From Elusimicrobia bacterium RIFOXYA2_FULL_39_19 (GTDB lineage: Bacteria; Elusimicrobiota; Endomicrobiia; CG1-02-37-114; XYA2-FULL-39-19): a DNA stretch of 64,000 nt. The notes under the pieces are model-generated. The model did no database searches and was not told where the DNA came from. It saw only the letters and a program-made list of their open reading frames with translations. This document shows, piece by piece, positions 2,848 to 28,042 of the stretch. The stretch lies in contig MGVC01000005.1 of assembly GCA_001800285.1 (NCBI GenBank), forward strand, positions 18,476-82,475, in the 5' to 3' direction. A program made the translations under genes and the position numbers. Each line of letters starts with the position of its first letter. Positions within the stretch are counted from its first letter, which is position 1.

Positions 2848-4026
2848 CTATATTCCCAAATCTGTGGGCGCCCGGCCTATACTGCGCAGCAGGGCAATAA
2901 CTCTGCTGATATTAGCGGTTACTTTTATGTCTGTACCGGCTCTTTGGGGATAGATTTCATAAAGTTTCCGGTATTTTTCGGGTGTCAGGTTTATCATCAG
3001 CGAATTTCCGCCCGCCATTAAACCGCTTTTGGCGCCGTTTTCTTTATCCAGCGTTTCTAATGATGTGGTAACAAGTATTTTTGCTTCCGGGCAGGCAAGG
3101 CGCGCTTTGGCTATGGCGTTTAACGCCAGTTCCAAAGACGGTTTGTTTTCATTTGCCAGCGGTGTCTGCGGATGCGGTATAAAAGGCCCGAAAGAAAACA
3201 TATCCGTGCCAAGCGCTGTAGTAAGTTTGATATCATTTTCTAAATCTTCCCGGGTCTGCCCCGGCAGGCCTGCTAAAAATCCGGTAAAAATCAGGTAACC
3301 CATGTCCCGCAGCTGTTTAATCAGTTCCAGGCGTTTATTAAAATCACTGTCCGGTTTCATTTTTTTATATAACTGCGGATTGCTGGTTTCAAACCTTAAC
3401 AGCACGCCGCGGGCGCCTTCGTCATACAGGCGTTTATAAAAAGATATATCTTTTTCCCCTACGCTTAAAATAAGCAGTATGGGTGTTTTTTCCATTATGG
3501 ATTTTACTACAGAACCCATTATTTCTGCTGTATAGCTGTCATCTTCACCGGACTGCAGGACCAGCGCTTTAAAACCGTGCAGATTTATTGCGTCAGCCGC
3601 CGACTGAATAATTTCATCGGGCTCCATTTGGTATCTTTTAAGCTGTTTATTATCTTTTCTTAAACCGCAGTACAGGCAGTTATGTTTGCAGTAGTTTGAA
3701 AATTCTATTATTCCGTGCACACAGCAGGAATTGCCGGAATATTTATGGCGCACGGCATTGGCCTTTTCATACATGGTTTTTGTTTCCCGGGCAAGGTTTT
3801 TATCTACCTGTGCAAGCTCATGAAACATTTCTTTCCAGGACTCCAGCACCGGCAGGGCCTCGCGCTCTGATATTCTTTGGATTACCAGCCCGCCCTGGGC
3901 ATAAATGTATTCGCCTAAAGCAAGGTTATAAAATTCATTTCTTGCTTTCTTTTGCTCACCGAAGTATTCTACGGTGATTATTTTATCGTTAATTTCTACT
4001 ACTTTTCCCGGAATGGCGTAGCACAT
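2848..4026 (-). CDS. hydE: HypC/HupF-family N-terminal domain fused to a HydE-like (BioB-type) radical SAM maturase
   Basis: N-terminal MCYAIPGKVVEI...GEYIYAQGGLVIQRISEREAL matches HypC signature MC(L/I)AIPxKV...VHVGFA. Residues ~110 onward carry SNYCKHNCLYCGLRKDN (CX3CX2C), which closely resembles the HydE motif NVCRKNCLYCGLRRDN, followed by a BioB-like TIM-barrel-length region. Confidence 0.65.
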   Translation of the reverse strand: MCYAIPGKVVEINDKIITVEYFGEQKKARNEFYNLALGEYIYAQGGLVIQRISEREALPVLESWKEMFHELAQVDKNLARETKTMYEKANAVRHKYSGNSCCVHGIIEFSNYCKHNCLYCGLRKDNKQLKRYQMEPDEIIQSAADAINLHGFKALVLQSGEDDSYTAEIMGSVVKSIMEKTPILLILSVGEKDISFYKRLYDEGARGVLLRFETSNPQLYKKMKPDSDFNKRLELIKQLRDMGYLIFTGFLAGLPGQTREDLENDIKLTTALGTDMFSFGPFIPHPQTPLANENKPSLELALNAIAKARLACPEAKILVTTSLETLDKENGAKSGLMAGGNSLMINLTPEKYRKLYEIYPQRAGTDIKVTANISRVIALLRSIGRAPTDLGI

Positions 4027-4040
4027 TTTGTTTTAGGGGT

Positions 4041-5498
4041 TCAGTAAAACAAATCCCGTTCTCCATTTTTTATCTGCGCCAGTTTATCTGTTACCTGCGC
4101 ACGCATTTTCTTATCTTCAATTTTGTTTAAATAATGGTTTATTAATTTATAGCCGGGTTTGTAGGCGCCGTTTTGTTTTGCAAAATCTTCCAGATATTCA
4201 GCAAAGGTCAGCAGGCCGTTTACCCGGCAGAATTTATGTATTTCACCTGGTTTGGACAGTTCCATGAAATGTTCACCGGTCCTGCCCAGCCGGTAACATG
4301 CCGTGCAGAAACTTGGCAGCAGTTTTTGCGGCAGAATGGATTTTATAACTTCGCTTAAAGAACGTTCATCACTTACTTCAAACTGCACGCCCTTTTTTTT
4401 GTTTCCGTAACCGCCCACTTCCGTAACACTGGCGGCGGACGCCTGGGAAATACCCAGTTTAAAAGCCTGTTTTCTTATCTGCGCGCTTTCCCGGGTGCTG
4501 ATAATCATGCCTGTGTAAGGGACAGCAAGGCGCAGTATGGCAATAAGTTTTAAAAAGTCATTATCTGCTACCGGATATTCCGGCTTATAAGTTACAGACG
4601 GCGCTGGCCGGAATCTGGGTACAGAAATAGTGTGCGGGCCGGTGCCGTGCTTTTTTTCCAGGTAATCTGCGTGCATAATAAGAGCCAGCACCTCAAAGCG
4701 CCAGTCATAAAGCCCGAATAAAACACCGAGGCCTATATCATCAAGGCCTGCTTTGAATGCTTTATCATACGCGGTTAACTGCCTTTGATAATCTGCTTTT
4801 AAGCCTGTATGCAGTTTTTCAAAAGTTTCTTTGTGGTAAGTTTCCTGAAAGAGCTGGTAGGTGCCTATTTTTGATTTTTTAAGTTTCCTGTAATTTTCTT
4901 CAGTGGTGGCGGCAATGTTTACGTTTATCCGGCGTATTGAACCCCTGGGTGTTTTTACAGAGTATATGGTTTCTATGGCTTTGGTTATGTAATCAATGGT
5001 ATTTTTTTCACTGTCTTCGCCAAGCTCCAGCAAGACTCTTTTGTGGCCTGCATTAATAAGGTACGTTACCTGGGCCTTAATTTCTTCAAAAGAAAGTTTT
5101 TTTCTTTTAAGCGCGGTATTTTCTTTATGAAAATTGCAATAATCGCAGTTATTAACGCAGTAATCGGAAATATACAGCGGGGCAAAAAATACAATTCTTT
5201 CGCCGTAAATTTCGTTTTTAATATGGTTTGCCGTTTCAAATAGCTTATTGATAAGTTTTTTGTTTTTTAGGTTTAGCAGTATGCCCGCTTCTTTAAGACT
5301 GAGGCCTTTTTTCTGACGGGCTTTTTTAAGTACTGCTAAAACAGCTTTATCAGCAGGACTTTGTGTCTGCTTTAAAATACCGTTTATAACCTGTTCATTT
5401 ATTATGTTCATAACATATTTTCCTGTTATTTTTCTGATCCTCTCCACTTGCAGATTGTGTCGCAATTTTGGAATGTAGTGGCCAAGCTTGCTTGGCAA
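4041..5498 (-). CDS. hydG: [FeFe]-hydrogenase-type radical SAM maturase HydG (ThiH-like tyrosine lyase)
   Basis: N-terminal CVNNCDYC (CX3CX2C) radical SAM motif. C-terminal CTACYRLGRTGEHFMELSKPGEIHKFC is an exact CX2CX22C second-cluster motif diagnostic of HydG. Size is 485 aa. Confidence 0.8.
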   Translation of the reverse strand: MPSKLGHYIPKLRHNLQVERIRKITGKYVMNIINEQVINGILKQTQSPADKAVLAVLKKARQKKGLSLKEAGILLNLKNKKLINKLFETANHIKNEIYGERIVFFAPLYISDYCVNNCDYCNFHKENTALKRKKLSFEEIKAQVTYLINAGHKRVLLELGEDSEKNTIDYITKAIETIYSVKTPRGSIRRINVNIAATTEENYRKLKKSKIGTYQLFQETYHKETFEKLHTGLKADYQRQLTAYDKAFKAGLDDIGLGVLFGLYDWRFEVLALIMHADYLEKKHGTGPHTISVPRFRPAPSVTYKPEYPVADNDFLKLIAILRLAVPYTGMIISTRESAQIRKQAFKLGISQASAASVTEVGGYGNKKKGVQFEVSDERSLSEVIKSILPQKLLPSFCTACYRLGRTGEHFMELSKPGEIHKFCRVNGLLTFAEYLEDFAKQNGAYKPGYKLINHYLNKIEDKKMRAQVTDKLAQIKNGERDLFY

Positions 5499-6426: not shown

Positions 6427-6981
6427 TTACTTTTCCTGCAATAAAATAACGTTGCAATTCTTGTCAAATTCCTTTAAAACTTCCTGGCTGACTCTTTTAT
6501 AAATCTCAAAATCTTCATACACTATGGCAAACACACCGCTTTCTGACGGCTCTGCATTAATTGAAAGAATAGTTTTACCGTCATTCCATTTCAGCGTGCC
6601 GTCATTTATGCAGGCAGGCCCATAAATTGCATTATAATAATCGCATATTTTTCCGTGAAACCCGCAAAATTCATCCATAGAATCATTATCATTTATGGAA
6701 TAAATTGTATGTATGCTGTACAACTGCCTGTCGTAAAATATCAGATTAACATATTTCACATATTTGTTATCAACGTCGTTTAACAGTACATTGCCCCAAT
6801 GTTTACTGCTTTCCATATCCTTTTTATAGTTGCCGGTAAAAACCAGGTTGCTGAAACTGGTACCCAGCGTGTAGCCGTAAAGAGTGCGTTTCAGGCTTGG
6901 GCTTGAACGAAGAAGGGCCTGAGCGTTTAACATACTCATAAAACCGGATAAAACAATTAAAAACATTATAATCTTTTTCAT
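6427..6981 (-). CDS. Secreted Cys-containing hypothetical protein (signal peptide)
   Basis: N-terminal MKKIIMFLIVLSGFMSMLNAQA signal peptide; 184 aa; several Cys (CGFHGKIC, CIND). Lies directly downstream of the PorV-like gene on the same strand. Confidence 0.55.
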   Translation of the reverse strand: MKKIIMFLIVLSGFMSMLNAQALLRSSPSLKRTLYGYTLGTSFSNLVFTGNYKKDMESSKHWGNVLLNDVDNKYVKYVNLIFYDRQLYSIHTIYSINDNDSMDEFCGFHGKICDYYNAIYGPACINDGTLKWNDGKTILSINAEPSESGVFAIVYEDFEIYKRVSQEVLKEFDKNCNVILLQEK

Positions 6982-7070: not shown

Positions 7071-8186
7071 TTATGGTGCAATATTATTTTCTGGCATGGG
7101 TAAACTTTCCAGCTTTTCTTCAGCCGGCACAACTTCCGGAACTGCTTGTATTTGTGGTTGCGTTTGGGTTTCCGGCGTTTTTTCTTCCTTTGCTTCTGGT
7201 ACAGTTGTCTGTACCAAATCTTTGCTTTTATTATATTTAAAAGGCATAGTCAGCGAAAGCCTGTAAGTATTTCCTAAATATCCGTACGGAGAAAAAGAGC
7301 AGTCCACATTTCCATAAGCACTGTTTATCCCAAACCCTGCAGACAACCCGCTGTCTGCCTGGTTGCGCCCGTTAAAACCAAGCCTTAGTTTTAGAATATG
7401 CAGTAAAGTATATTCAGCACCCATATTGATTATTAGCGGAACATCTTTTGAAAAGGTTGTATCAAAAGCAAAAAGCAGGTTTTGTTCAGGCAGAGTGTAT
7501 GCCGCGCCCAGTTTAAAATTTAACGGCAACTCTTCCTGCGTGCTGTAGAATTTTGCCCTTGTGCCAAGGTTTTGCAATACAGCTCCTGACTGAAAAACCT
7601 CATTGAATTTATACAAACATCCAATATCAATTGCTATTGCCTGTGTTTTTACAAAATCAATTCTTTCGTTTATATATTTCACGCTTAACCCGGCAGACAG
7701 CTTATCATTTAGTTGTTTTCCGCTGCCTAATGTCACCGCCATATCCTGTAAAAGATACTCACTCAGGCCATAGCCATTTCTATTTGAAATAGTAGTCCTT
7801 TGAATTGTGCCCCAGTCAACAATATTTATACTGCCGCCAAAACCAGTATTGGACACAAAGGCAAAATACCGCTGATTTATTTTCTGCAGCCAGAAAGTGT
7901 GCATAAAGTTTACTTCACTTCTTTTTATAACAGCCAAGCCGGCAGGATTATAGTACAAAGCATTAAAATCATCCGCTACGGCTGTAAAGGCCCCGCCCAT
8001 ACCTGCAGGCCTTATGCCTGTATCCAGCCTTAAAAAACCAAAAGGCGTAGTACCCGCACCTTCAGCAGACAAACGGATAGGCGCAGATAAAACACAGAAT
8101 ATACCGGCACAGAAAATCCAGAGCAGAACTCTGCTGTGTTTTCCTTTTAGAAATGAAAGTGTATTTTTTATAATTACCAGTTTCAT
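7071..8186 (-). CDS. PorV/PorQ (LptO)-family outer-membrane beta-barrel, T9SS cargo-shuttle-like
   Basis: Signal peptide, then GAGTTPFGFLRLDTGIRPAGMGGAFTAVADDFNALYYNPAGLA, a family-defining N-terminal motif of PorV/PorQ/UPF0164 barrels. Alternating beta-strand pattern with aromatic C-terminal region. Start ATG overlaps the giant gene's stop (ATGA at 8183-8186). Confidence 0.55.
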   Translation of the reverse strand: MKLVIIKNTLSFLKGKHSRVLLWIFCAGIFCVLSAPIRLSAEGAGTTPFGFLRLDTGIRPAGMGGAFTAVADDFNALYYNPAGLAVIKRSEVNFMHTFWLQKINQRYFAFVSNTGFGGSINIVDWGTIQRTTISNRNGYGLSEYLLQDMAVTLGSGKQLNDKLSAGLSVKYINERIDFVKTQAIAIDIGCLYKFNEVFQSGAVLQNLGTRAKFYSTQEELPLNFKLGAAYTLPEQNLLFAFDTTFSKDVPLIINMGAEYTLLHILKLRLGFNGRNQADSGLSAGFGINSAYGNVDCSFSPYGYLGNTYRLSLTMPFKYNKSKDLVQTTVPEAKEEKTPETQTQPQIQAVPEVVPAEEKLESLPMPENNIAP

Positions 8187-11100
8187 TTTATTATCCCCAG
8201 CTTAAATACTTTTCTCTCTCCCGTGCTTGACACAATAACCGCCAGATACCCGCCGCTTGCTAATTCAGAGCCGTTATTATTTTTTACATCCCAGTTAAAT
8301 GTACCGGATGATTCAATATAACTGTCAAAAACCAGTTCACCGCTTACCGTATAAATATATATTTTTACCGCTTCCGTAAGATTTTCAAATACTATACCGG
8401 ACTGCGAATTGCCCTGGCTGTAGGGAATACCGTTATCATCAGCACCGTCATAAGGCACATACGGGTTCGGATAAACCAACACATTATCAAGGTTATTTGA
8501 AGCAGCTGCAAATATACCAAAAAGGCTGAAATGGCCTACTTGTATAGATGCCGTATTATTAATTTTGTCTACTGTTGTTTCCGAATCCTTTTTCCAAATA
8601 CGGGATGATTCATCATAATAAAGGATTTTTATATTTTCTTCCCGCATATCCGTATCATCAATTATTCCGTCATTATCTTCATCTGCGTAAGCTATAATTA
8701 TAGTTACATTTTTCAATAAGGTTTTCTGCCCGCTTGCCAATTCAATACTTCTGAACATTCCCGCGGATTTATATTTCCTGTCTGATGACGGAATTGAAAG
8801 CGGGTTAATGGCTACTTTTACCAAATCAAAAGAACCGGAAAGAGCCCCCTCCGGGATAATAATTTCGGTAAAATGTTTTTTATTAATATCAGCTAACTTA
8901 ATGCTGTTTTCTACATTGTTATATATTTTCTGTGTTTTTTCCGGGACCCCATTTTGTATTTTTTCTTCCATATCAGGGCTTATTCTGTCAATGACTACAT
9001 TAACCGTTTCCGGATTATTGTCATAATTTCCTGTCTTATCATAAGCTACACACCTTAACTGATAATTCCCCTGCAAGAAATCAGATTCATTGCTTACATC
9101 CCAAAAATAGTTATAAGGGTATGTTGCATCCGGATTGGTAAACAACGAACCAGTAGAATAAATATTATGCCATTCATCCTCAGAAGCCTTCCTGTACTGG
9201 AAATAAACATACCTGATATCAGAACTCTCACCTGATGTTATCTCGCTGGTCAACGTTATCCTGTTGCCGCTTATTTTCTCGCCTTCTTTAGGCGCTGTTA
9301 TTTCAACCTTTGGCAAATCCACATAGTTTGATATATTTGTTATCCTGAATTCTGAAGACTTATAAGGAAATGTATTGTTTTTATCTGAAACCATAGTCTG
9401 GGGCACAATAGTCAAACCGCTAAACTCTTCAAGCCGTATACCGGTATAATCATTTTCTGTTGAATTCATTGAAAGATCTGTATAACCCACATCTCCTACA
9501 ATATATAGTTTTACTTCAGCGGTTGATATATAAAGACCGGTTGATTCTATTGATAGACTTGCCATTCCTGAAACGAAATTCATGTTTGGATTGGCTCCTG
9601 TTGAATGTGGAATGGATGAAATAAATACATCAGTTGTTGCATCAAATTTTCCATCACCATACGGAAAAGCAGCACTGGTTGCCTCTTTCCAGATACTCAG
9701 GCACGAAAAATCACCCTGGCCCTTTCCCGGAATAAGCGATGTTTCTACCGTACCTGTTTGTTTAAGCGTTATATTGGTAAGTAAAGCATGGTTAGTATTA
9801 GTTTTCAGCCGTAATAACATAAGCGGAACATTTTTGCTTCCATATTTCGTATATACAGGGGCATAATTTTCTGATTTTACAATCAGCCCTATAGGGGTTA
9901 CCGGGAGCAGGCTGGTTTTACAGTAATCAAAACTTGTTGAATTGCCTAACTGTACGCCGGTATTGGTTTCAAGTACCAATAATGGAGAAACATCGTGCGG
10001 CAATCTTAACTTTATCCAGCCGCTGTCTGGAATTTTCAGGCCTATTGTATTTCCAGCAACCGCATTATCACCCATATCGTAAGCTATGAAATATGTTTGA
10101 TTTGATGGATTAAGTTTCTGTATGTTTGTCAGATAAATCATTTTTGTTTTGCTTAAATCATTGCTTAAATCAAACATATCAACTTTTTTAATTAAATCAC
10201 CGGAATTTAATTGTTTTCTTACGGTACCGTACTTCCCGCGTTCAACTATCCTTAAAAACGGTTTCGGCCCTGTTGGCGTAATTGTAGTTCCCGCCAGGGA
10301 ATACCTCATAATCTCATCGCCTGCTTTTACAAGCAGCTGCTGTTGCCCGGTAGGGAAAGTTCCTGTAAGAGTAATCGTTGACTCAACTATCAAATCAAAA
10401 GGCAGTGGTGTATATATTGAGATATAATTATAGTATACCCCATCGGAACATAACGAACTTATTTTTGTTTCTGCCTCTGAGATGCACTGGTCATCGGCGT
10501 CAAGAATGTTGTTGTAGTTTGCGTCTCTAAATATTTTTATATACTTCACATCAGAGTTTCTTCCCTCCGGTTTTGTCTGGTCCAAAGGGCCGCCTGTGCC
10601 GGTACGCTCAACCTGAATAGCGTCCCAGTTACAATTGGATTTATCGGTACGCAGTTTTAGCCTCATCATTTCTACGTTTGACTGGGACTGAAATGCACCG
10701 CTTGCAAAATGCACGTAATAAGCGCTGTCTGATACAGTAGCAGATACAGCAACCTGAACTTCCTTTATTTCTGCTGTCTGAGTTATAAACGGAGCTGTAG
10801 GCCAGAGAAATTCTACACCATCCGGAACCTGTACAGTAAAATATGTTTTGTCCAGAATACTGGCTCCTACTGTTTTACTTATTTGGGCAAATTGGCTGAT
10901 ATCATAAGTTAAATAGTATGTCTGTAGTGTAGCGGTTATGGTTCTGGCGTCATAATAGTTGTCTTCTGTTTTAAGCAACAGCGTGGCAGCCTTTTCAGTG
11001 AACGTATCACTGCCATAAGTTATTAGGCCGCAAGGCTGGCTGTTTATCATAACTGTTGATTCAAACACGCTGTATTCAGAAGTAGATGTAATTACTTTCC

Positions 11101-14100
11101 AGATTTTAATCTTACTCACATCAGCATCTACTCCTGTCCCGGTTAAATTAACTTTTATGCTTTCCCATAAAGCGGTATTTCTATTTGTTTTCATTGACAA
11201 TTGTATTACTGGTACATTTTCTGCATAACGTTCTACAGTACTCATTAATTCTGATGAGGGGGTTATATACACAGTATCAACGGTTGCTACAATCGGCATA
11301 TTAGCAGTTTTTATAGGAAAGGCAGGTATCTCACCTAATCCAATAGGCACATAAGTTGATACTCTGTGCCGCATCTCTTCTGACGGATGATTTACGCCTA
11401 TTTTGTCCTCTCCTGTTATTTCTGCGCCAATTATTTCATTTTGCCAGGAAATAAGCGGATGAGAGAATTTAGCCGACGGGCTGACATCATAAGTTATGAA
11501 ATATGCCGTTGGCGTGGTAGTAACAAGTATATAACCCCTGTTAATTGCCGGGTCATTTAAGTAAAGGCGGCCTCTGGAATTATCATAAACGCCTGAACCA
11601 ACAAGCGTGTCAGCAGTTACAATTCCCCTGTATTCAGGTGAAGCAAATCTATCCAGCCTGCTGTTTCCATTATCATCACGGTAAACTTTTATATTTAGTA
11701 AATCACTGTCTGCACCGAATAATAAGTATGACGGCGTGGTACGGGTTATGGTAATGGTACCCATTTCCACCTGAAAACCGTCAGCCCATAAATCAAGTTT
11801 CTCTACTGCAAAGTTTTTCACTCCCTGAGTTACCTGCACGCCAAAAACTACACCCGATGAATGACTGGCAGCAAAACTGCCCAGAACACCACGGGTAATG
11901 CCTGTAATAGAATTTGCTGTTTTTCCCGTGTATTTTATAATTTCACTTTCTATAACTGCATAACCGCTTGCAGGAATTGCCAGTGTTGGCGTAGGACGGC
12001 CCAGGGAATCATTTGAAAACAGATAAAGGACATCTGCGCCTGCACTTAAATTTCCACTTAACCGCGGAACCTCGTAGGTTGAAAGTGTGCCTGTTTCTTT
12101 TGGGTCATCATCAGAAAAAATCGGGGCTGATTTTACAAATATAGTCCTGGGTGATGATGCTATTGTTTTTAAAGTGCTTTTCCAGGGAAGGCCGATGTCA
12201 TCCAGATTATCGGGTTCTGATATGAAATCATCTTCGGTTTGAACGAGATTATCTTCATCTGTCGGGAAGCTTTCTGCTGTAAGTCTTACACCAAGGTTTT
12301 TTGGGTCACCGGTTCTGGGGTTAGTGGTTAATGCAGTTTCGCTGATATCGTAAGTTATAAAGTATCTTTGCGATTTTGCTACTCCGGCTCTGGCGGCAGT
12401 AATTATTTCCTGTACCTTACTTGAATTAAATCTGATAAGGGTTGCTAACGCATCGCCGGCATTACTGAATGTTCCAGAACCTACCAAAACATCATAGTCT
12501 GTGCCTGCATAAAAATAAGGGGTTACCGGACTTTTATTTAACATTCTGTCATTATTTGCGTCATACCAGACTTTAACTACCGGTACTTCCTCCTGCACGG
12601 CGCCGCCATCGTAAGAGGCTGTACCGGTGGAATATATTCTGATTGCATACCACAAAGCTTCAGACAAATCCGTTTCCAGGGTAAACTGCGCCATAACATT
12701 ATCTACTGAACCCTGAACTAAATATTGTGTATAAATATAATCAGTTGGTTTCACCAATACATCATCAGGATATTCTTTAACCTGTGACACGTAAGATTCA
12801 GTCCACCCTGTTGCCGCCCATTCAGTGCCAATCCACTGGTTATTTCTAGGGCTTCTTAAACCTACCTGTGCCTGCACATTGCCCATATAATCCGGAGAAT
12901 TGATGGTGAAGTAACCGGTTGATGGAATTTCCACGCCCAGTTTAAGCGACGCATCTACCGTACAAACAGGGCTGTAATCAAAGGTAATAAAATAATTTTT
13001 AGGTGTTTGCCGGATTTCCTGCACCCCACTAACGTCACCTACTATATCCAGCCGTGCCGGGCCAGACACAATAGCTCCGCTGGTATGGGATTTAGCGGTA
13101 GTTTTATCCTGCCCGCGGACAACACCTGTAAACAAATTATTATCTTCATCAACCCCGGTATAAGTAACTATTTCAAGTTTTGACGGGTCCCCGTTATCAT
13201 CAATAATTAATTTACCCGGCGCCTTAGGCACAGAACAAAATGGCGGGAAGAAAACCCCAATATCAGCTACCTCAATTACACTGGCAGACTCATTAATACT
13301 TTCAGCTAATTCTGATACAGGAAACTCCATAAGTGAAAATTGCGGGTTCTGGTCAACCACCATCGAATCGGTAACTTCGAACATTCCGTCATTGTTGCTG
13401 TCATACCACAGCTGTATTTTATCTACATCTGTAGGCAGGCTGAGTGTTCCTTCCGGCACGCCTGATGTGGCATTTCTGTATATAGACCTATCAAGTTTCA
13501 GTCCGCCCCACAGGCCGGTTCTCTGAACTGTTGCCATGGTAAGTTTCATTACCGTTATGTTTGCATCACCCTGGGTTACTACCCCGGTTACAGTAAAATT
13601 CACGCTGGATACACTGGTTTCCTGTTTGTTTACGTTATAAACATTCAGTTCATCAACTGTGGCTGTCACTACAACTTTGGTAGATTCAATAGAGGCATAA
13701 GACTGCATAGCACCTTCTAATAAGGTTATGCCGTTTATCTGGGCACCGTGCGTATAACCGGGAGTAGCGGAATTTTCAATTTTGTAGGTTATAAAAAAGT
13801 ATCTGCTGGTACAATCAATTAACTGAGGTGTTGAAAGCATACACTGGGCGCTTCTGTCTGTAAACGGTACCCAGTTTGTCAACGCATCATCGCCTCCGGG
13901 TTCTAAAGCTCCGTTGGGGTTTGAACCAGCATCTATCCTGCCGTCATTCGGGCTGGAATCTTTTCCGTCCATATATATTTTTACGCCTACTATGTCATAA
14001 TCCTGGCCGGTGCCTGTTCTGCCTACTTTTATTTCGCTTATCGCCCCCTGAAACATAGGGGCGCTGAATGCTACCCTTAACATTCCAATATCAGATTCAC

Positions 14101-17100
14101 CCTGCTGCATGTAGGAGTAAGTAATAGGCTGTGTGGTGCCTTCAAGTTGGTAATAAGCGGCAATATCCGTTAACTGCGCATAAACTTTCGGCGGTGATTT
14201 TTCTACTGCCCAGGTGGTGGTAACTATTTCAAAATTGGCCTGGGACACACCAATAGTTCCTGAAGTTTGTATAGACTGGTAACTCTGCAACCGTAACCCA
14301 AAATATGTACCGGTAGTTGCGCTGGTGGCTATGCGCACTGCAATGAAATACGTTTTAGGTAAAGTATTTACTGAAACTTCTGGTTTTACGCTTAAATTTC
14401 TGAAGTACCAGGCGTCAGTGCCCGCATCATACTCAGCATCACAAAGTTTAGTGTCTGTTGGTTGGCCGCCACTTACAAGTTCCGGGTCAAAGTAATAGTT
14501 GCCGCTTGCGTCATAGTAAAGACTCATCTTACTAATACTGCTGGAAGGCGTATTGCCAAATTTTTCTACTTTTATCTGTTCCAGTTTTTCTGTAAGATTG
14601 GCTTCCACAGGCAGGGTTACCATAGTAAGTCCGGCCATACCAAACGGCTGGAAGTTTTCTACAATATCCCCGTCACCCTGATACACTTTCTTAGAAATAA
14701 CTCTTGATAGATAATTAGAACCTCTCAACAAATTTTCCGGGTCTAATATCGGTGTTACTTTTATGCCTGAAGTTACCAGGTTCGCATCTGAATGTGCTGT
14801 TTCAACTCTTGTGCTGTCATTAGTCCAGCCGTACACTACACCATCCGCAGGATAATCCAGCGCCTGAGTAACAGGAGATGCATAATGAGTAGCGCTGATT
14901 TTTAGTGATTCCTGCATCTGGTTGATTACCTGCAACCCCTGCCAGACACCGCTGTCACTTTCTGTATAAGCATAATAGGTTGCACTGCCGGGCATAGCTC
15001 TTAGTGTTACTGCGGTAGTGGAGCCGGTATGTGCAAACTTTATTATACCTTTATAATACTGACCGTTGGTGCTATCGCCGGATGCCACATTACCAAACCG
15101 GTCTCTGGCTTTTACGGTAACCGTGCCGTTTGAATTTACCGGCAATGGATTTGTTAAGGGATAACTGTGGTGAATTGTAAAAAACCTTGCAGGAGCAGGA
15201 GTGATATACTGGTTCTGTGTTGCAGATACTAACTGTATTGAACCGCAGGTTCCCTCAGCTCTCAATGTACTGGTACCGGCTTTTGTATCAAAGAAATATA
15301 TGGAATGCTCTGAAGAACCCGGGGGTATAATACCCGGCAGGAAACCGCCCTCGCAAATACTGGGCCAGTCAGCGCTAAGCATTAAATTTTTTAAAGGGTT
15401 TTCACCGGCACGGGCAGAAGTTGAATTTGTACAGGTATAAACTATGCTTGTAGCATCAGAAGAAATAGTAACATTATCTGACTGGTCCCTTAACTGGATA
15501 GTTATCACTGTAACGGTTTGAACACGGTTTGAATAAGAGCTTAATGGAACAGGTAAAACGGCTGATGAAAACGGATTGTAGCCTTGCACGGAATATGTAG
15601 AAACAACACTTCCTAAATTTCCGGAGCCGGTATACGCAATGGTTGTACCAGCAATTAATCTTCTTGATTCCGTTATAAAAACAAAATGATGGGGGTTCCC
15701 CGCAACTACTGAATAAGTCTGCACAGCTACAGCCCAATCTGTCTTTGCCGGGTTCTGCGCAGTTATTTGAAAATTCCCCAGATTGGTATCTATCATGTAA
15801 AAACTGGTGGTGTCATCACCTATATTTAACGTAACAATATCAACCGCAGGTTTTGCTACCCACCCGGAAGTAATATTTGGCGAAGCAAACCTCACATTCC
15901 CTGTACCGGTAGAATTAAGGTCAAAGATACTCATAACTTCTTCACCTGTAATTACCGGTGACGGGTTGGAAAACTTGTCCTGTGTCTGCAGTAAAAAAGC
16001 TGATGATGTAGTACCGGCCGCCAATATCTGATGAGATGATATTATGGCCAGTTTCTTTATTGGTGATGCCGTTATCGGTACGTATTGGCCGGAGCCCGGT
16101 GTTTCCCAACTTCCGCTTGAAGCTTTTACATGAGGCATGGTGGAAGCAGCAATATTATATGGCGGATAAGTTTTTGATGCTTTTGTATCTGCATACCAGA
16201 ACTGGGTGGCATATTGGCCGGCTGAAATTGAAGCCGTTGAGGTGTGCATCCACGGTGAAGATGTAAGTGAGAAGGAATAATTTCTGCCGTATTCCGTAGT
16301 GGCAATAGTATCCACTTCGCTTTCAAACGTTAACCTGTGCAAATAATCTATGCGCAATGAATTACCTGCCCCGGAATCACTCTGCAGGTTCATGGTAGTG
16401 TCTACGTTTACAGCTTTCGGGTTGCCGTAAGTATCCTGTGTTTCTATTTCAAGCACCTGCAAGCTATTCTGGTTGTTATAAACTATACCCGCCAGTAACG
16501 GCAGTGTGGTTGAAGGAATAACATCAAAACCTACCTGAGTTATAGCGCCCGGGTTTACATTAAATGTTGTTGAACCAACATAGATACCATACTCAACAGA
16601 AGCTGTCCATTTACCTATTGACGGACGCGCAGGCAGAGCGGCGGTAGCCGTGCCCTGAGAACCGTCTTCGCCTGCAGGCCATGAAGCATACATATCTGAA
16701 TACCTGAATGATGCCTGTGAATTGGCTGCAGGTACCGGCCATACTGCCGCGGACCATATAGGTATAGCTACATCATACATGCTCAGCATAGTATCGGTAG
16801 TTTTATTCCAATATTTCTTCTGTGAATTTAGTACAGAAGGTGAATCAGTTTTCAGCTGGGTGCCGATAGAAAGAGAAACTATGTTTGTTTCACCCGTCGG
16901 GTTATTCCAGTAATCGCGTTTTTCAAAAGTAAATACGGTAGATTTTATGTTACCCGCAGAAGCTTCAATGTCTGACGGTGTAGTTACAAACTGGAAGCGG
17001 TATAAATCACCGCCGGTAGTCATAATGTTTACAGATTTACCTGTAATGGTTGCACCCGCAGCGGTAGATACCTGCACCTTGGCATAATGGCCTCCGGTAG

Positions 17101-20100
17101 TGGATACCTCATAGTATAATTCTTTGCCTAGGCCGCCCACTTCACCATTGCTGTCGGTTGTAGTAGAAGTAATTACATTGCCGGAAGCATCTTTTATAGT
17201 TCCTGAAGAACCAAATACATCCACTACACTTAATACCGCGGAAATATTTGAACTTGAAACCTGGTTTTCATAAGAGTCGGCAATAAACGCTTTTACCTGC
17301 TGACGGTTAGGCACGCCGCCGGAGATGCCCGCTTTTACATAGATCGGGTCGGTCCACGGGCTTGGTATAGCAAATGCAAACTTGCTGGGGTCTCCCGGCC
17401 TTACTTCTATTACCGGTCTGTTTGAATATCCTGACCTATTGGCATCTATCAGGGAATCTGTGCTCTGGCGCCAGTTTATCCAGCGGGTACCAGCCTTTTT
17501 TAGTTGAATGGTAAATAAGTGTGAACCGGCATCTGCGTCAGTAAACACATAGTGTTCTCCGCCGCTGCCGGGTAGAGGTTCTGGATTCTGCAGTGAATTA
17601 TCAAAGTCCGTAGGAGCAATTTCTGCCAAGAACTGCACTTCACCGGTGTATCTGGTGCTTCCGGTAGAACATATATTGTGGTATCTGTCTTTTACATTTA
17701 TTCTTACATTGTAATCTGAACCAGCATAAGCCCAGGTAGAGCCGCGCACAGGGTCAATATAGCTTGTACCCTGCATGTAGTAGGCGGCGTCCGGCCATAT
17801 TCTTATCTGGCTGGATTCTTTAGAAGTATATTTTACAGCCGCGGTTGACCAGTCAACCGACACGCAGGTCCAGGAAGAAGAAGCAGTCAACGGCCTTACG
17901 CTGAAGGCTCTTGAACCGAAAGCCAAGCACTGTATGGTTGGCTCAGAATCCTGATAATCCCAGGTGGTTACCGTGCAGGAAGGCATATCTACACCTGACA
18001 TAATCCTGTTATACCAGATATCTGTTAATACAACATCTATGTTAAAGGCATCCCCGGCTGTATGCACAGTTGGCTGGGTATCGGTCCTGCCGTAAGGAGC
18101 AATGTTCCATTTTCCGGGAACGTGGGTTTCACCCGGCACCACCACAAGTAAAAATGCCGGCGAAGATGGATTTACTGTAAACTGCCTGCTGCTGACATCT
18201 GTAATATATCTCGGGTCAGAACCATCAACATCCTTGGTCCAGAGCATATGCCAGGTAGCAGCAGTTTTGAGCTGTATTTGAAAAGTATTGCTGGCGCTTA
18301 TGTCGCCGAGTGGTGACGTGGATGAATTGGCATCATAAGGGTCATTGGTTTCTACCGTCACTTCAGGCATGGTTATTCCGGGTAGTGACGGAAATATTCC
18401 TTTATTATAAGTATTGTAGTAGTTATCTACTAAGTTTACTGTTACTTCAAACACAGTACCGGCAGTCTGGGTTACCGGAGAACCTGTTTTACCGTTAGCA
18501 GTGCTAACATTTAAACCCCATGCCGGCGTTTCACCAGGAAGTATTATCTGGAGATGGTTCGGAGTGCCCGGTAGTACAGTGAAAGTGGATACGGTATAAT
18601 CCGGTGCACTGTTTGGATATTTTGTATAAGTACCATAAAGTTCTTCCGCAACTGCATAGTGGTAAGTGGCGGCACGTTTTAAACCAGTAGTGAAACTGGC
18701 TGTCTTGTAACCCGGGTCTGTACCGGTAATTGTTATCTGAGCTGGTTCTACATTATAAGGATCCGTAGGAGTGTATAGAACAATGGTTCCCTCTGCACCG
18801 GATACAATATTGAAGTTGCTGTCTGTAATGGCCACAGTAACATCAAATGGGGCACCAGCGGTTTGTTGTGATGGACTGCCTGTTTTACCATAAGGTGAGT
18901 TCATGTCAAAGTTTTGGCCTGGTAAAAGAACCAGAAGTTTTGAAGCTGTGTTGCTAACAACCGGGACCTTTGAGCTGGGCTGGGAATTAACCATAATTCC
19001 GGGATATCCCTCACCTTCCACCCAGCTAAATGCCGACATTCTTATACGCCAGCCGGTATTGCTGGATGTTGAAAAAACCCATTTTTCAGAATCATCTAAA
19101 ATATATTGTCCGTTTGAAACCCATATACTTCTCCCAGTTACCTGCGGGTCGTTAGGGTCACCGTCTGCTCCATCAGACATAAGTGTTAGAGTAGGATTTT
19201 CATCAGTCTGGTTATAACATTGGTCCAGGCATAAAACAGTTGTTTTAAAACCCACACCAGCAACCTGTGCTGTTGGGTTGGAAGCTTCCGTTTTTCCCGG
19301 TTGAGAGCCGGTAACTTTACCGTCAACATGGGTTTCACCCGGTACCAATATCTGAATTCTGTAGGGAACATTTGTAGTAATGGCTATGCTCTGGGTATAA
19401 TCATATTTATAATTACTGCAATAATCTGTAGTTGCTGTGATGATAGTATTTTTCTTTGTTACAAGCGTAATGCCAAATGTCGTAGTCCCGGAAAAAAGAG
19501 TTTTTGTACTGGGGTGCGTGTCATATAAATCATCGGTAATTATGCTGACATTTATTCCGGTAGTAGTTACTGAATTGTAATAGTCATCACATGCATCTAC
19601 GGTTACATTAAACGATTCTCCCGCTTTATGGCTGGTTGGATAATTATTGGACATTCTGCCTCTTGTAGAAATATTACCGGCATCCGGTAATTCCCCTGGA
19701 GCAAGAATTCTCAATCTTTTAGCACTTCCTGGAATTATGTTAACAATATTTGAATCATATGTACCCAGGCTTCCGGTTGCCCTAACTGTCCAGGTGGAAG
19801 CAGTATTCATCATTACGTTATTCCACACATTCTGTCCCATAGTTAAGCCCTGGCTTCTGGAATAACTACAATAAGGGTCTGTTACCGTTACAGACACCCC
19901 TCCCATTACAGCAGTGGAACATAAGTTATAATAATTATCCGTAACACGCACAGTTACAGGAAACACTACACCAGCTGTCTGAAAACTAACGCTATAATTT
20001 TTTCCTCCGGTTCCGTCACCAATTGGCTGCTGGGTTACATTTTCTCCATAAGGAGGCTTGCCGGGAGCAGGCACTTCATTCGGCAAGATTACATGGTAAC

Positions 20101-20917
20101 GTGTAACTAAATTCGGATAAACCCTTATTTCAGAACTTGTACCGGTTGATAACCAGATATCGTTGCCATTATAATTAAGAGCTTCTGTTGGATATGCTTT
20201 TACATAATGCGTTGCATAACCTGTCAGACCTGCCATTTCTGCATTAAAAACAGTTATGGTTGTTATACTTGAACCATTAATCAAACAAACATAATTTGTT
20301 TTTGATCCATATTGATCGGTAGATTCAACATACACTATGGGGTTTGCGTCAGAAATAGTATTCCATTGTAAATCTGTGGCTTTTATTGTTATGGCAAATG
20401 GTTGGCCTGCAGTAAATCTTGAAATCGGTGTTCCTGATTTTCCAGTTGAAGAACCCGGATTTTGTGTTTCGCCGGGAACTAAAATAAGCAACTTTGATGG
20501 ATCGGAAAGCGGGTAGGCTGTTGTATTATTTGAAACACCTGAAAATAATTCCAAGGGTCCTGAAGAGACCCAGATTCTAAAATAGTATAACTTATCGCTT
20601 TGAAGGCCTGTTATTACGTAATTCTGTCTGTTCCCGGAATTAACAGAACCTGTTGATAATACCAGATTTCCGCTTGTGCCCGTACTCCAGGCAATACTTT
20701 CAAAAGTTGATTTTTGAATTTCATACCTGCTCCCAACGGGTATAGTAAATGGGCCTGGATAGGTCCAAATTAAACGGACCTCATAAGAGTTCTGACCGGT
20801 AACAGCCGAAAGATCAGTTACCGCTAAAGATTGAGCAAATATGTTTTGAATACTTATAACAAGTATAAGAATACAAAACATAATTCTGATATTTATCACT
20901 TTATTCTTAAACATCAT
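8183..20917 (-). CDS. Giant (4244 aa) secreted repeat protein with T9SS C-terminal sorting domain (adhesin/surface-layer-like)
   Basis: Single uninterrupted 12.7-kb ORF. N-terminal signal peptide MMFKNKVINIRIMFCILILVISIQNIFAQS. Roughly 8 tandem ~110-aa repeats containing L-x-I-L-x-PGE-T...GKTG...QTAG-x-F-x-VTV-x-A-x-D-x-(W/Y)-N. Later modules with recurring [YF][FY]I[TA]YD(I/V)S motif. C-terminus VYPNPY...KIYIYTVSGELVFDS...GTFNWDVKNNNGSELASGGYLAVIVSSTGERKVFKLGIIK matches the Por_Secre_tail/T9SS CTD pattern. Ser/Thr/Gly/Asn/Tyr-rich. Confidence 0.85.
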   Translation of the reverse strand: MMFKNKVINIRIMFCILILVISIQNIFAQSLAVTDLSAVTGQNSYEVRLIWTYPGPFTIPVGSRYEIQKSTFESIAWSTGTSGNLVLSTGSVNSGNRQNYVITGLQSDKLYYFRIWVSSGPLELFSGVSNNTTAYPLSDPSKLLILVPGETQNPGSSTGKSGTPISRFTAGQPFAITIKATDLQWNTISDANPIVYVESTDQYGSKTNYVCLINGSSITTITVFNAEMAGLTGYATHYVKAYPTEALNYNGNDIWLSTGTSSEIRVYPNLVTRYHVILPNEVPAPGKPPYGENVTQQPIGDGTGGKNYSVSFQTAGVVFPVTVRVTDNYYNLCSTAVMGGVSVTVTDPYCSYSRSQGLTMGQNVWNNVMMNTASTWTVRATGSLGTYDSNIVNIIPGSAKRLRILAPGELPDAGNISTRGRMSNNYPTSHKAGESFNVTVDACDDYYNSVTTTGINVSIITDDLYDTHPSTKTLFSGTTTFGITLVTKKNTIITATTDYCSNYKYDYTQSIAITTNVPYRIQILVPGETHVDGKVTGSQPGKTEASNPTAQVAGVGFKTTVLCLDQCYNQTDENPTLTLMSDGADGDPNDPQVTGRSIWVSNGQYILDDSEKWVFSTSSNTGWRIRMSAFSWVEGEGYPGIMVNSQPSSKVPVVSNTASKLLVLLPGQNFDMNSPYGKTGSPSQQTAGAPFDVTVAITDSNFNIVSGAEGTIVLYTPTDPYNVEPAQITITGTDPGYKTASFTTGLKRAATYHYAVAEELYGTYTKYPNSAPDYTVSTFTVLPGTPNHLQIILPGETPAWGLNVSTANGKTGSPVTQTAGTVFEVTVNLVDNYYNTYNKGIFPSLPGITMPEVTVETNDPYDANSSTSPLGDISASNTFQIQLKTAATWHMLWTKDVDGSDPRYITDVSSRQFTVNPSSPAFLLVVVPGETHVPGKWNIAPYGRTDTQPTVHTAGDAFNIDVVLTDIWYNRIMSGVDMPSCTVTTWDYQDSEPTIQCLAFGSRAFSVRPLTASSSWTCVSVDWSTAAVKYTSKESSQIRIWPDAAYYMQGTSYIDPVRGSTWAYAGSDYNVRINVKDRYHNICSTGSTRYTGEVQFLAEIAPTDFDNSLQNPEPLPGSGGEHYVFTDADAGSHLFTIQLKKAGTRWINWRQSTDSLIDANRSGYSNRPVIEVRPGDPSKFAFAIPSPWTDPIYVKAGISGGVPNRQQVKAFIADSYENQVSSSNISAVLSVVDVFGSSGTIKDASGNVITSTTTDSNGEVGGLGKELYYEVSTTGGHYAKVQVSTAAGATITGKSVNIMTTGGDLYRFQFVTTPSDIEASAGNIKSTVFTFEKRDYWNNPTGETNIVSLSIGTQLKTDSPSVLNSQKKYWNKTTDTMLSMYDVAIPIWSAAVWPVPAANSQASFRYSDMYASWPAGEDGSQGTATAALPARPSIGKWTASVEYGIYVGSTTFNVNPGAITQVGFDVIPSTTLPLLAGIVYNNQNSLQVLEIETQDTYGNPKAVNVDTTMNLQSDSGAGNSLRIDYLHRLTFESEVDTIATTEYGRNYSFSLTSSPWMHTSTASISAGQYATQFWYADTKASKTYPPYNIAASTMPHVKASSGSWETPGSGQYVPITASPIKKLAIISSHQILAAGTTSSAFLLQTQDKFSNPSPVITGEEVMSIFDLNSTGTGNVRFASPNITSGWVAKPAVDIVTLNIGDDTTSFYMIDTNLGNFQITAQNPAKTDWAVAVQTYSVVAGNPHHFVFITESRRLIAGTTIAYTGSGNLGSVVSTYSVQGYNPFSSAVLPVPLSSYSNRVQTVTVITIQLRDQSDNVTISSDATSIVYTCTNSTSARAGENPLKNLMLSADWPSICEGGFLPGIIPPGSSEHSIYFFDTKAGTSTLRAEGTCGSIQLVSATQNQYITPAPARFFTIHHSYPLTNPLPVNSNGTVTVKARDRFGNVASGDSTNGQYYKGIIKFAHTGSTTAVTLRAMPGSATYYAYTESDSGVWQGLQVINQMQESLKISATHYASPVTQALDYPADGVVYGWTNDSTRVETAHSDANLVTSGIKVTPILDPENLLRGSNYLSRVISKKVYQGDGDIVENFQPFGMAGLTMVTLPVEANLTEKLEQIKVEKFGNTPSSSISKMSLYYDASGNYYFDPELVSGGQPTDTKLCDAEYDAGTDAWYFRNLSVKPEVSVNTLPKTYFIAVRIATSATTGTYFGLRLQSYQSIQTSGTIGVSQANFEIVTTTWAVEKSPPKVYAQLTDIAAYYQLEGTTQPITYSYMQQGESDIGMLRVAFSAPMFQGAISEIKVGRTGTGQDYDIVGVKIYMDGKDSSPNDGRIDAGSNPNGALEPGGDDALTNWVPFTDRSAQCMLSTPQLIDCTSRYFFITYKIENSATPGYTHGAQINGITLLEGAMQSYASIESTKVVVTATVDELNVYNVNKQETSVSSVNFTVTGVVTQGDANITVMKLTMATVQRTGLWGGLKLDRSIYRNATSGVPEGTLSLPTDVDKIQLWYDSNNDGMFEVTDSMVVDQNPQFSLMEFPVSELAESINESASVIEVADIGVFFPPFCSVPKAPGKLIIDDNGDPSKLEIVTYTGVDEDNNLFTGVVRGQDKTTAKSHTSGAIVSGPARLDIVGDVSGVQEIRQTPKNYFITFDYSPVCTVDASLKLGVEIPSTGYFTINSPDYMGNVQAQVGLRSPRNNQWIGTEWAATGWTESYVSQVKEYPDDVLVKPTDYIYTQYLVQGSVDNVMAQFTLETDLSEALWYAIRIYSTGTASYDGGAVQEEVPVVKVWYDANNDRMLNKSPVTPYFYAGTDYDVLVGSGTFSNAGDALATLIRFNSSKVQEIITAARAGVAKSQRYFITYDISETALTTNPRTGDPKNLGVRLTAESFPTDEDNLVQTEDDFISEPDNLDDIGLPWKSTLKTIASSPRTIFVKSAPIFSDDDPKETGTLSTYEVPRLSGNLSAGADVLYLFSNDSLGRPTPTLAIPASGYAVIESEIIKYTGKTANSITGITRGVLGSFAASHSSGVVFGVQVTQGVKNFAVEKLDLWADGFQVEMGTITITRTTPSYLLFGADSDLLNIKVYRDDNGNSRLDRFASPEYRGIVTADTLVGSGVYDNSRGRLYLNDPAINRGYILVTTTPTAYFITYDVSPSAKFSHPLISWQNEIIGAEITGEDKIGVNHPSEEMRHRVSTYVPIGLGEIPAFPIKTANMPIVATVDTVYITPSSELMSTVERYAENVPVIQLSMKTNRNTALWESIKVNLTGTGVDADVSKIKIWKVITSTSEYSVFESTVMINSQPCGLITYGSDTFTEKAATLLLKTEDNYYDARTITATLQTYYLTYDISQFAQISKTVGASILDKTYFTVQVPDGVEFLWPTAPFITQTAEIKEVQVAVSATVSDSAYYVHFASGAFQSQSNVEMMRLKLRTDKSNCNWDAIQVERTGTGGPLDQTKPEGRNSDVKYIKIFRDANYNNILDADDQCISEAETKISSLCSDGVYYNYISIYTPLPFDLIVESTITLTGTFPTGQQQLLVKAGDEIMRYSLAGTTITPTGPKPFLRIVERGKYGTVRKQLNSGDLIKKVDMFDLSNDLSKTKMIYLTNIQKLNPSNQTYFIAYDMGDNAVAGNTIGLKIPDSGWIKLRLPHDVSPLLVLETNTGVQLGNSTSFDYCKTSLLPVTPIGLIVKSENYAPVYTKYGSKNVPLMLLRLKTNTNHALLTNITLKQTGTVETSLIPGKGQGDFSCLSIWKEATSAAFPYGDGKFDATTDVFISSIPHSTGANPNMNFVSGMASLSIESTGLYISTAEVKLYIVGDVGYTDLSMNSTENDYTGIRLEEFSGLTIVPQTMVSDKNNTFPYKSSEFRITNISNYVDLPKVEITAPKEGEKISGNRITLTSEITSGESSDIRYVYFQYRKASEDEWHNIYSTGSLFTNPDATYPYNYFWDVSNESDFLQGNYQLRCVAYDKTGNYDNNPETVNVVIDRISPDMEEKIQNGVPEKTQKIYNNVENSIKLADINKKHFTEIIIPEGALSGSFDLVKVAINPLSIPSSDRKYKSAGMFRSIELASGQKTLLKNVTIIIAYADEDNDGIIDDTDMREENIKILYYDESSRIWKKDSETTVDKINNTASIQVGHFSLFGIFAAASNNLDNVLVYPNPYVPYDGADDNGIPYSQGNSQSGIVFENLTEAVKIYIYTVSGELVFDSYIESSGTFNWDVKNNNGSELASGGYLAVIVSSTGERKVFKLGIIK

Positions 20918-22200: not shown

Positions 22201-22518
22201 TTATTTGTCTTTTTCATAATGGTCACAGACTGATTTTTCCCACGGCTTTACGCCGGAAAGATGTGCGGCGCGTGAAATAGCGTGGGCAGATACCGGCGCT
22301 GTAAGCAGTAAAAATAATGCGCAAAATATTGCTTTTATACCCACATCAGTAAATCCGTGGATTACAAATACGCCCAGCATAATGCCGCAGGTGCCGAACG
22401 TTACACATTTTATTGAGGCATGAAGCCGGTTATATAAATCCGGAAGCCTTACTAAACCCAAGCAGCCAATAAAATCAAAGGTTATCCCTATTCCTATAAA
22501 TATATACCCTATTAAATC
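22201..22518 (-). CDS. mrpG: Mrp antiporter subunit G (MnhG/MrpG)-like
   Basis: GLVRLPDLYNRLHASIKCVTFGT matches the MnhG signature. Start chosen at MIDLIGY so that ATG overlaps the mrpF stop (ATGA); the track ORF extends further upstream to 22569. Confidence 0.7.
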   Translation of the reverse strand, partial: DLIGYIFIGIGITFDFIGCLGLVRLPDLYNRLHASIKCVTFGTCGIMLGVFVIHGFTDVGIKAIFCALFLLLTAPVSAHAISRAAHLSGVKPWEKSVCDHYEKDK

Positions 22519-22852
22519 AATCATCAAATTTTTTCCCCTCAAGATATTTTGCCAGGGCAATAGTTGCAATAAAAGACTGCAGCGCCCACGCTATGGCTAT
22601 TTCAATAAAAAATATTTTATCTGTAAATACCGTTAAAACTCCGCAAAAACCTATGACCAGAATACCCAGAATATCTATGGCTACTACGCGGTCCGCCGGG
22701 GTTGGCCCCTTGTAAATCCTCCACAGGCATAATATACAAGAAGGAATAAGAAAGTTCACCATTCTCATAAGAGGTGAAAACTCATATTTCAGATTTACGG
22801 CTATTATCAACGCTATAAGTATCAGCCCTATAAACCAGCGTAATAATTTCAT
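22517..22852 (-). CDS. mrpF: Mrp antiporter subunit F (MnhF/MrpF)-like
   Basis: Small 3-TM protein with YKGPTPADRVVAIDILG motif typical of MrpF/PhaF. Confidence 0.7.
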   Translation of the reverse strand: MKLLRWFIGLILIALIIAVNLKYEFSPLMRMVNFLIPSCILCLWRIYKGPTPADRVVAIDILGILVIGFCGVLTVFTDKIFFIEIAIAWALQSFIATIALAKYLEGKKFDD

Positions 22853-22863
22853 TTTATATACCT

Positions 22864-23358
22864 TTATTCAAATATTTTTCCCAATATTTTTTCGTATTTG
22901 CCTATTATTATTTCTGTTGCTTTATCAATATCTTCGGTTTCCACGTTCATCCAGTGAACATAGAGATAACCGTTTTCACTGTCTACGTCTACGGTGAAAG
23001 TGCCGGGGGTAAGCGTGATTGTGTTTGCCAGATAAGTCAGGGCAGAATCACTGCGTAAATTTGTTTTTACTTTTACAATACCGGGTTTTATAGGAAGGCC
23101 CGGGTGCAGTATTCTGTAGGCGCCGTCAATATTTCCTTTTACCATTTCCCATATAAATACCCATATATAATAAACCGCCCATATATATCTTGCATGCTGT
23201 TTGAATTTCCAGGGGTTACGAGTTAATATATCGCCTACAGCCCAGGCAATAAATAAACTGATAATAACACCTGTCAGTAAATACTGCCAGTCTAAAGACC
23301 AGGTAAGGGCTACCCAGAAAACAAATGCCAATAGAAATGATAACGCTCTGCTTTTCAT
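22864..23358 (-). CDS. mrpE: Mrp antiporter subunit E (MnhE/MrpE)-like
   Basis: ANTITLTPGTFTVDVD matches the conserved MnhE ITLTPGT motif; 164 aa. Confidence 0.7.
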   Translation of the reverse strand: MKSRALSFLLAFVFWVALTWSLDWQYLLTGVIISLFIAWAVGDILTRNPWKFKQHARYIWAVYYIWVFIWEMVKGNIDGAYRILHPGLPIKPGIVKVKTNLRSDSALTYLANTITLTPGTFTVDVDSENGYLYVHWMNVETEDIDKATEIIIGKYEKILGKIFE

Positions 23359-23372
23359 GACTCGCCTTTTAT

Positions 23373-24845: not shown

Positions 24846-24848
24846 ATT

Positions 24849-25657: not shown

Positions 25658-25669
25658 ATTTTTTTCCTG

Positions 25670-26191: not shown

Positions 26192-26192
26192 A

Positions 26193-28040: not shown

Positions 28041-28042
28041 TT

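Follow-up and report, generated by a model that had tools for sequence, protein, structure and literature searches.

[quoted passage not shown] The question is raised by a locus of Elusimicrobia bacterium RIFOXYA2_FULL_39_19, a metagenome-assembled genome (MAG) from Rifle aquifer groundwater; its phylum, Elusimicrobia, lies outside that superphylum. The window analysed here, a stretch of 64 kb, is part of an 86-kb contig of this genome. A first-pass annotation had described one 12.7-kb open reading frame (ORF) with a signal peptide, and our analysis confirms this ORF (minus strand, 8183..20917), which encodes 4244 aa. It had not mentioned the gene lying directly 3' of the giant gene, which encodes an outer-membrane barrel and tells more about the locus than any other feature.

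The two-gene unit and the anatomy of the giant protein

The features of the locus are as follows.

8183..20917 (-): giant protein, 4244 aa, a single ORF with an ATG start
20834..20917 (-): Sec-type signal peptide, aa 1-28, predicted cleavage between IFA and QS, from direct reading of the translation
20570..20824 (-): aa 32-116, weakly fibronectin-III-like domain (PF00041, 16.2 bits, cutoff 25)
17396..20500 (-): aa 140-1174, tandem array of eight "PGE" repeats, Ig domains of the invasin/Big_1-like type
14660..17395 (-): aa 1175-2086, central region, about six degenerate D-x-[YFW]-x-N units, from motif positions
9371..14659 (-): aa 2087-3849, the eight modules called "YF", beta-sandwiches resembling cohesin or CBM
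8963..9370 (-): aa 3850-3985, opening the C-terminal cassette; a probable Ig-like domain, judged by its sequence pattern and conserved with homologues P0001 and P0002
8510..8932 (-): aa 3996-4136, the "middle domain" of the cassette, bearing an acidic loop (D-x-D-N-D-G-I-I-D) and the motif HFSLFG
8186..8488 (-): C-terminal sorting/anchoring domain (CTD), aa 4144-4244, of the T9SS-CTD superfamily, closest to the PorZ/PorU CTDs
7071..8186 (-): PorV/PorQ-family outer-membrane beta-barrel gene, 371 aa, with a signal peptide (NF033709 match)
6427..6981 (-): 184-aa ORF, secreted-looking, 3' of the barrel gene; its place in the unit is doubtful

The ATG of the barrel gene overlaps the TGA of the giant gene (ATGA at 8183-8186), and from this junction the barrel gene is predicted to be translationally coupled to the giant gene. 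A Shine-Dalgarno-like GAGGA stands 5-8 nt 5' of the giant's ATG, and promoter and terminator scans around the two-gene unit were uninformative. As a candidate third component of the unit, the 184-aa ORF was rejected: the family-model scans gave no match for it, and the 80 related genome loci described below all lack a counterpart, which occurs only in copies of the RIFOXYA2_FULL_39_19 contig. The N-terminus of this ORF is signal-peptide-like, and the ORF appears to be species-specific.

Elsewhere in the window, 22201..33490 and 2848..5498 (both minus strand) hold an Mrp/Mbh-type group-4 [NiFe] hydrogenase cluster with antiporter-like subunits, NuoB/C/D/H-like proteins and ferredoxins. They also encode two radical-SAM/BATS proteins (HydE/HydG-like), one of them fused to HypC, with HypA nearby. 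Judged by these gene assignments, the hydrogenase cluster and the HydE/HydG-like genes would fit a hydrogen-based metabolism of groundwater Elusimicrobia. A further cluster at 37615..45465 (minus strand) has a PrsK-like histidine kinase (202 bits, cutoff 300) on one side and a PEP-CTERM-box-like sigma-54 response regulator (415 bits, cutoff 502) on the other; a B12 radical-SAM methylase (HpnR-like), ThiF, an ICMT-type methyltransferase and FabF lie between them. These genes may form a regulated lipid or envelope modification cluster.

The signal peptide of the giant consists of the n-region MMFKNKVINIR, a hydrophobic core and the IFA/QS site; by direct reading it is of the Sec type, without a lipobox. 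It is followed by the weak fibronectin-III-like match, and NCBI names giants homologous to the 4244-aa protein "fibronectin type III domain-containing protein".

Roughly eight tandem repeats of about 110 aa had been claimed for the giant. The number eight holds, but fragment-wise phmmer and iterated profiles give a period of about 125-135 aa instead. A blastp comparison of the giant with itself gave no off-diagonal matches, and the repeats were delimited by fragment-wise phmmer in its place. Self-comparison together with an iterated profile placed copies 1-4 at aa 140-268, 272-384, 397-513 and 518-606, and copies 5-8 at aa 657-783, 784-918, 920-1042 and, in part, 1063-1174. The E-values of the copies range from 1e-13 to 1e-35 each, except for the last (4e-4). 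The motif L-x-I-L-x-PGE...GKTG...QTAG-x-F-x-VTV...D-x-Y-N is real and present in these N-terminal repeats. Their Ig-like beta-sandwich fold resembles invasin and intimin domains. In the Pfam scan, PF02369 (Big_1) had no match on the giant, and it reached 27.2 bits in the relative P0014, below the cutoff of 34.9. Within the central region, the D-x-[YFW]-x-N motif stands at aa 1214, 1335, 1495, 1647 and 1939. Matches of the PGE profile over this region (aa 1175-2086) were below significance; it probably comprises more Ig-like domains.

The recurring [YF][FY]I[TA]YD motif of the first-pass annotation was found at aa 2190, 2374, 2642, 2852, 3139, 3334 and 3609, together with an eighth, degenerate copy. 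It marks modules of about 130-185 aa, eight of them between aa 2087 and 3849, whose fold resembles that of cohesin or CBM modules. Inserts interrupt two of the modules (about 50 and 90 aa), and modules 4 and 5 are separated by a third. The inserts within and between the modules span aa ~2527-2611, ~2902-3016 and ~3489-3590 (~13084-13338, ~11869-12213 and ~10147-10452, minus strand). All three share the motif E-I-x-Y-[TS]-G ... [LF]-T-G-[IV]-x-R-G ... H-x-x-G, in which the homologue P0024 also ends, and they may represent a small inserted domain. Since both the PGE repeats and the YF modules are profile-significant and recur in other proteins, neither family is a product of chance.

Across the whole giant, there were four Pfam and two NCBIfam matches, every one of them sub-threshold. 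Its close homologues were likewise without recognised families in the Pfam-A and NCBIfam scans, and phmmer of the full-length protein against the PDB gave no match. The earlier statement that the repeat families match nothing nameable is thus right as far as Pfam-A and NCBIfam recognition goes, but the folds are ordinary, of the adhesin or glycan-binding type. The suggestion of an S-layer-like protein found no support; the Pfam and NCBIfam scans contained no SLH or other S-layer family, and this reading was rejected for want of any S-layer feature.

Relatives of the giant were few in word-indexed searches, and those with an organism name belong to Elusimicrobiota. An exhaustive search with the YF-module profile returned 1628 cluster representatives with up to 27 matched stretches; among the best 150 of these 1628, the proteins reach 7176 aa. 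All six YF clusters that carry an organism name are from Elusimicrobiota and are annotated "hypothetical" or "fn3". In the fetched set, the YF array and the acidic-loop cassette occur together only in this giant and in one or two of 149 family representatives. The giant is a member of an uncharacterised Elusimicrobiota giant-protein family that is structurally ordinary. Elusimicrobiota have been reported as enriched in huge proteins without assigned function, and the YF-module giants fit these published surveys (PMC11573180; bioRxiv 10.1101/2023.11.21.568195).

The C-terminal domain and the barrel

The cassette begins with the probable Ig-like domain and continues with the middle domain. This middle domain scores an E-value of 2e-52 against its own A3-column profile and is common to the homologues P0001-P0004 and the related genome loci; in Pfam it has a weak EF-hand_8 match only. 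In contigs of Omnitrophota and Planctomycetota, it also occurs without a CTD, the matches being limited to query residues ~5-170 (loci L060, L073, L075-L080, L083, L086 and L087).

Behind the middle domain lies the CTD, previously described as a "textbook" Por_Secre_tail. The strings quoted for it are present at aa 4144-4244, but the scores stay below the curated cutoffs: TIGR04183 gives 11.1 bits on the whole protein and 15.5 on the CTD alone (cutoff 23), and PF18962 gives 13.1 bits (cutoff 27). At curated thresholds, then, the CTD model is not hit. The top Pfam match for the tail is FlgD_ig (18-21 bits, cutoff 27), and CHU_C scores 16-19 bits (cutoff 27).

Relationship to the T9SS CTDs emerges from family profiles. 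A profile of ten CTDs against the PDB returned the CTDs of PorU (6za2, E 3e-5) and PorZ (5m11, E 5e-5) at the top, with FlgD structures ranking after them. With the cassette profile, the PorZ CTD was the sole significant PDB match (E 1.6e-6), and a comparison of the giant's isolated CTD with the PorZ model gave an E-value of 3e-8 over the model's CTD segment. All ten CTD family members match TIGR04183 at E<=1 (best 6.8e-7), and five of 31 cassette proteins match PF18962 at E<=1e-5 (best 4e-8). These comparisons identify the giant's CTD as a true homologue of T9SS CTDs, and the proposed kinship of the end domain survives in this form. The CTDs of PorU and PorZ are not removed from these T9SS proteins (PMC11285876), and PorU is held at the surface by PorV and PorZ by PorQ (PMC5562754).

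Among the fetched proteins and the giant (a set of 183 sequences), the CTD stands at the extreme C-terminus of 89 proteins. The passengers before the cassette include fn3, beta-helix, Kelch and LamG domains as well as peptidases of families C11 and M6. Given this diversity, the cassette with its barrel appears to be a display module for general use, with the giant as one of its users.

The barrel matches the PorV/PorQ family model NF033709 with 163.1 bits against a cutoff of 90, its aa 46-315 covering model positions 1-325 of 326. It fails the equivalog models of the family: PorQ (NF033711) gives 107.2 bits with a cutoff of 220, PorV (NF033710) 70.4 bits with a cutoff of 250, and PorV2 41 bits with a cutoff of 325. 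PF03687 (UPF0164) is passed with 40.9 bits (cutoff 21.4); our literature search for UPF0164 together with PorV found nothing relevant. The single barrel sequence had no match in the PDB, and therefore a family profile was used for this comparison. The subfamily profile aligned the whole barrel with Flavobacterium johnsoniae PorV (6h3i_F) at an E-value of 1e-39, the FadL-type transporter TodX being a distant second. By these scores, the protein is best classed as a PorV/PorQ-family (FadL-like) barrel that is neither the PorV nor the PorQ equivalog.

Recurrence of the gene pair in other genomes

The conservation of the pair was assessed from both of its sides. The alignments of the CTD (A2) and the barrel (A5) were too divergent for contig scans, and alignments A3 (C-terminal cassette) and A7 (barrel) were used. 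In the forward direction, the A3 profile scanned over species-representative genomes yielded 80 loci, mostly in Elusimicrobiota MAGs, with a few in Lindowbacteria, Margulisbacteria, Hydrogenedentota and others. A barrel lies directly downstream on the same strand in 53 of 68 CTD-terminated ORFs, or in 53 of 65 where the sequence is available. The other 15 of the 68 CTD genes are without a downstream barrel; in two of these (L072 and L074), a PorV-like match lies upstream on the same strand and reaches up to, or into, the start of the CTD ORF. In the reverse direction, a metagenome scan starting from the barrel (A7) found 74 related barrels, and 39 of them have a CTD-terminated ORF immediately upstream. 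Among the closest barrels with upstream sequence, the figure rises to 16 of 17.

All-against-all clustering of the neighbourhoods found only the CTD and barrel families to recur. The divergence of the CTDs correlates with that of the barrels (r 0.62, reached by none of 2000 Mantel permutations), a correlation confounded by shared phylogeny. Of five other YF-module giants checked, two have a downstream barrel and three lack one; the genes of these three start at a contig edge, beyond which their upstream side lies. In both L008 (23216-27431) and L092 (17552-20857), the PorV-like barrel downstream of the YF giant is extended at its C-terminus by TPRs. Both loci also encode, downstream of the barrel, a protein of about 500 aa with FliG_M and FliG_C domains; its gene directly follows the barrel in L092, whereas a histidine-kinase gene stands between the two in L008.

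Several cassette-bearing genes can occur in one genome. The MAG CAZCME01 holds four such loci (L022, L023, L024 and L065), and L025 contains two CTD-barrel pairs about 3 kb apart. The presence of multiple cassette genes per genome points to repeated duplication of the pair. Occurring outside the FCB superphylum, the CTD with its cognate barrel represents a novel form of type IX-style sorting.

Anchoring, sorting or export, and known systems

Based on the observed domain anatomy, homologies and conserved gene pairing, we propose with moderate confidence that the giant is a Sec-exported fibrillar adhesin or glycan binder that keeps its PorZ-like CTD and is tethered to the outer membrane by docking on its own barrel. 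The protein would be exported through Sec as a string of beta-sandwiches, comprising the fn3-like domain, eight invasin-type Ig domains, the degenerate Ig-like stretch and eight cohesin/CBM-like modules, and would most likely form a long fibrillar adhesin or glycan-binding stalk. Such a role is suggested by the type of fold, and the first-pass impression of a surface adhesin suits a Sec-exported, repeat-built giant of this kind. At its end, the cassette of Ig domain, acidic-loop domain and CTD of the uncleaved PorZ/PorU-like kind would present the CTD, which we infer to be retained, to the surface loops of the barrel. Docking there would be non-covalent and would tether the giant to the outer membrane, by analogy with PorQ-PorZ and PorV-PorU in Porphyromonas. 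Its passage across this membrane may use a cryptic SprA-like translocon or some other route. The precedent for anchoring a CTD on a barrel is given by the PorZ-PorQ and PorU-PorV subcomplexes (PMC5562754).

More tentatively, the pair may amount to a self-contained two-gene surface display of Elusimicrobiota for which a T9SS is not needed, the cargo-specific barrel receiving and anchoring its partner and perhaps helping in its translocation. If this holds true, the CTD-barrel interaction would, as an evolutionary module, predate the SprA/PorKLMN machine or be separable from it, and the display of the many huge proteins of Elusimicrobiota would find an explanation.

It is rather unlikely that the giant is a canonical T9SS cargo, as the first-pass annotation had proposed, whose CTD would be recognised by a SprA/PorKLMN machine with its genes in another part of the genome and cleaved by a PorU-type sortase, followed by attachment to LPS or release, with the barrel as a substrate-specific PorV shuttle. 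The homology of the CTD to T9SS CTDs and of the barrel to PorV would agree with this, as would the significant PF18962 matches of some related cassette proteins and the many diverse passengers that bear the same tail, as T9SS cargo does. Against it stand the sub-cutoff scores of the CTD with TIGR04183 and PF18962, its best matches being the non-cleaved CTDs of PorZ and PorU, and the presence of one barrel per cargo gene, unlike a single general PorV. The host also argues against such a cargo, as T9SS genes are reported to be absent outside the FCB phyla (PMC11285876), and our literature search found no paper linking Elusimicrobia to T9SS or PorV. Furthermore, no T9SS core gene (SprA/Sov, PorK/L/M/N (GldK-N), PorU or PorT) was present among the scanned ORFs of at least 120 aa in the 64-kb window or the fetched flanks of the 86-kb contig, and none recurs beside related CTD-barrel loci in the neighbourhood clustering. 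Four SprA-sized ORFs near related loci were set aside, as they carry glycan-binding, amylase, fn3 or lamin-tail domains and are not T9SS parts. If a full T9SS were present in the genome, the barrel could act in shuttling instead of anchoring.

We consider it improbable that the two genes form a dedicated exporter resembling two-partner secretion, with the barrel as a conduit or BAM-assisted insertion site and the CTD as a targeting or plug element. The strict one-to-one gene pairing with translational coupling, the lack of any other conserved partner gene in the neighbourhoods and of a known translocon nearby speak for this arrangement. The barrel, on the other hand, aligns over its full length with PorV, its next-best matches being FadL-type transporters such as TodX, and the cargo is composed of many stable beta-sandwich domains. 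FadL-type barrels are 14-stranded and plugged, with a narrow lumen, which speaks against a conduit, and none of them is known to translocate proteins.

Finally, that the CTD is a generic FlgD-type Ig domain without a sorting role, in a periplasmic or released giant whose adjacency to the barrel means nothing, seems hardly credible: FlgD_ig is the top Pfam match for the tail and FlgD structures come next after PorU/PorZ in the PDB ranking, but the PorZ and PorU CTDs outrank them, the CTD is invariably at the extreme C-terminus in the 89 proteins of the fetched set, and its pairing with the barrel holds in the forward and the reverse test.

The anchoring of the giant on its own barrel, as proposed here, has its closest parallel in the PorZ-PorQ and PorU-PorV pairs of the Porphyromonas gingivalis T9SS attachment complex, where the CTDs of PorZ and PorU are retained and serve as anchors (PMC5562754; PMC11285876). 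In both settings, the surface protein has an Ig-like CTD at its end, the CTDs belonging to one superfamily, and a PorV/PorQ-family barrel is the presumed holder. In contrast to PorZ-PorQ and PorU-PorV, the Elusimicrobia genes are adjacent and translationally coupled, many pairs exist across Elusimicrobiota, in some cases several per genome, and the barrel's partner is no component of the machine but an enzyme or a giant adhesin-like protein. The phylum, moreover, lies outside FCB with no SprA/PorKLMN known in it, and the barrel fails the PorQ/PorV equivalog cutoffs.

A second parallel is the SprB-SprF system of Flavobacterium johnsoniae, in which the gene of a giant repeat adhesin is followed by that of its own outer-membrane barrel and anchoring is mediated by the CTD. 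Gorasia and colleagues reportedly described in 2022 type B CTD proteins that go with PorP/SprF-like barrels. The order of a giant repeat adhesin gene and its own barrel gene is shared with our locus, but the barrel here is of the PorV/PorQ (FadL-like) and not the PorP/SprF type, and the CTD resembles type A and PorZ more than it does CHU_C. Fibrillar adhesins of the invasin/intimin/Big_1 kind differ from the giant in that it has no Big_1 Pfam match, and whereas intimin and invasin carry a fused N-terminal barrel, the anchor proposed here is a separate barrel bound by the C-terminal CTD.

T9SS-type sorting has been regarded as confined to FCB, yet a CTD and a PorV/PorQ-type barrel are tightly linked here in another phylum, in a repeatedly duplicated pair that serves giant adhesin-like proteins and enzymes. 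Either Elusimicrobiota possess an unrecognised T9SS-like pathway, or the CTD-barrel pair is a stand-alone surface anchor, and either would change the map of where and how T9SS-type sorting operates. Through its YF modules, the giant also resembles the uncharacterised huge proteins of Elusimicrobiota, for which the CTD-barrel pair would provide the first functional handle.
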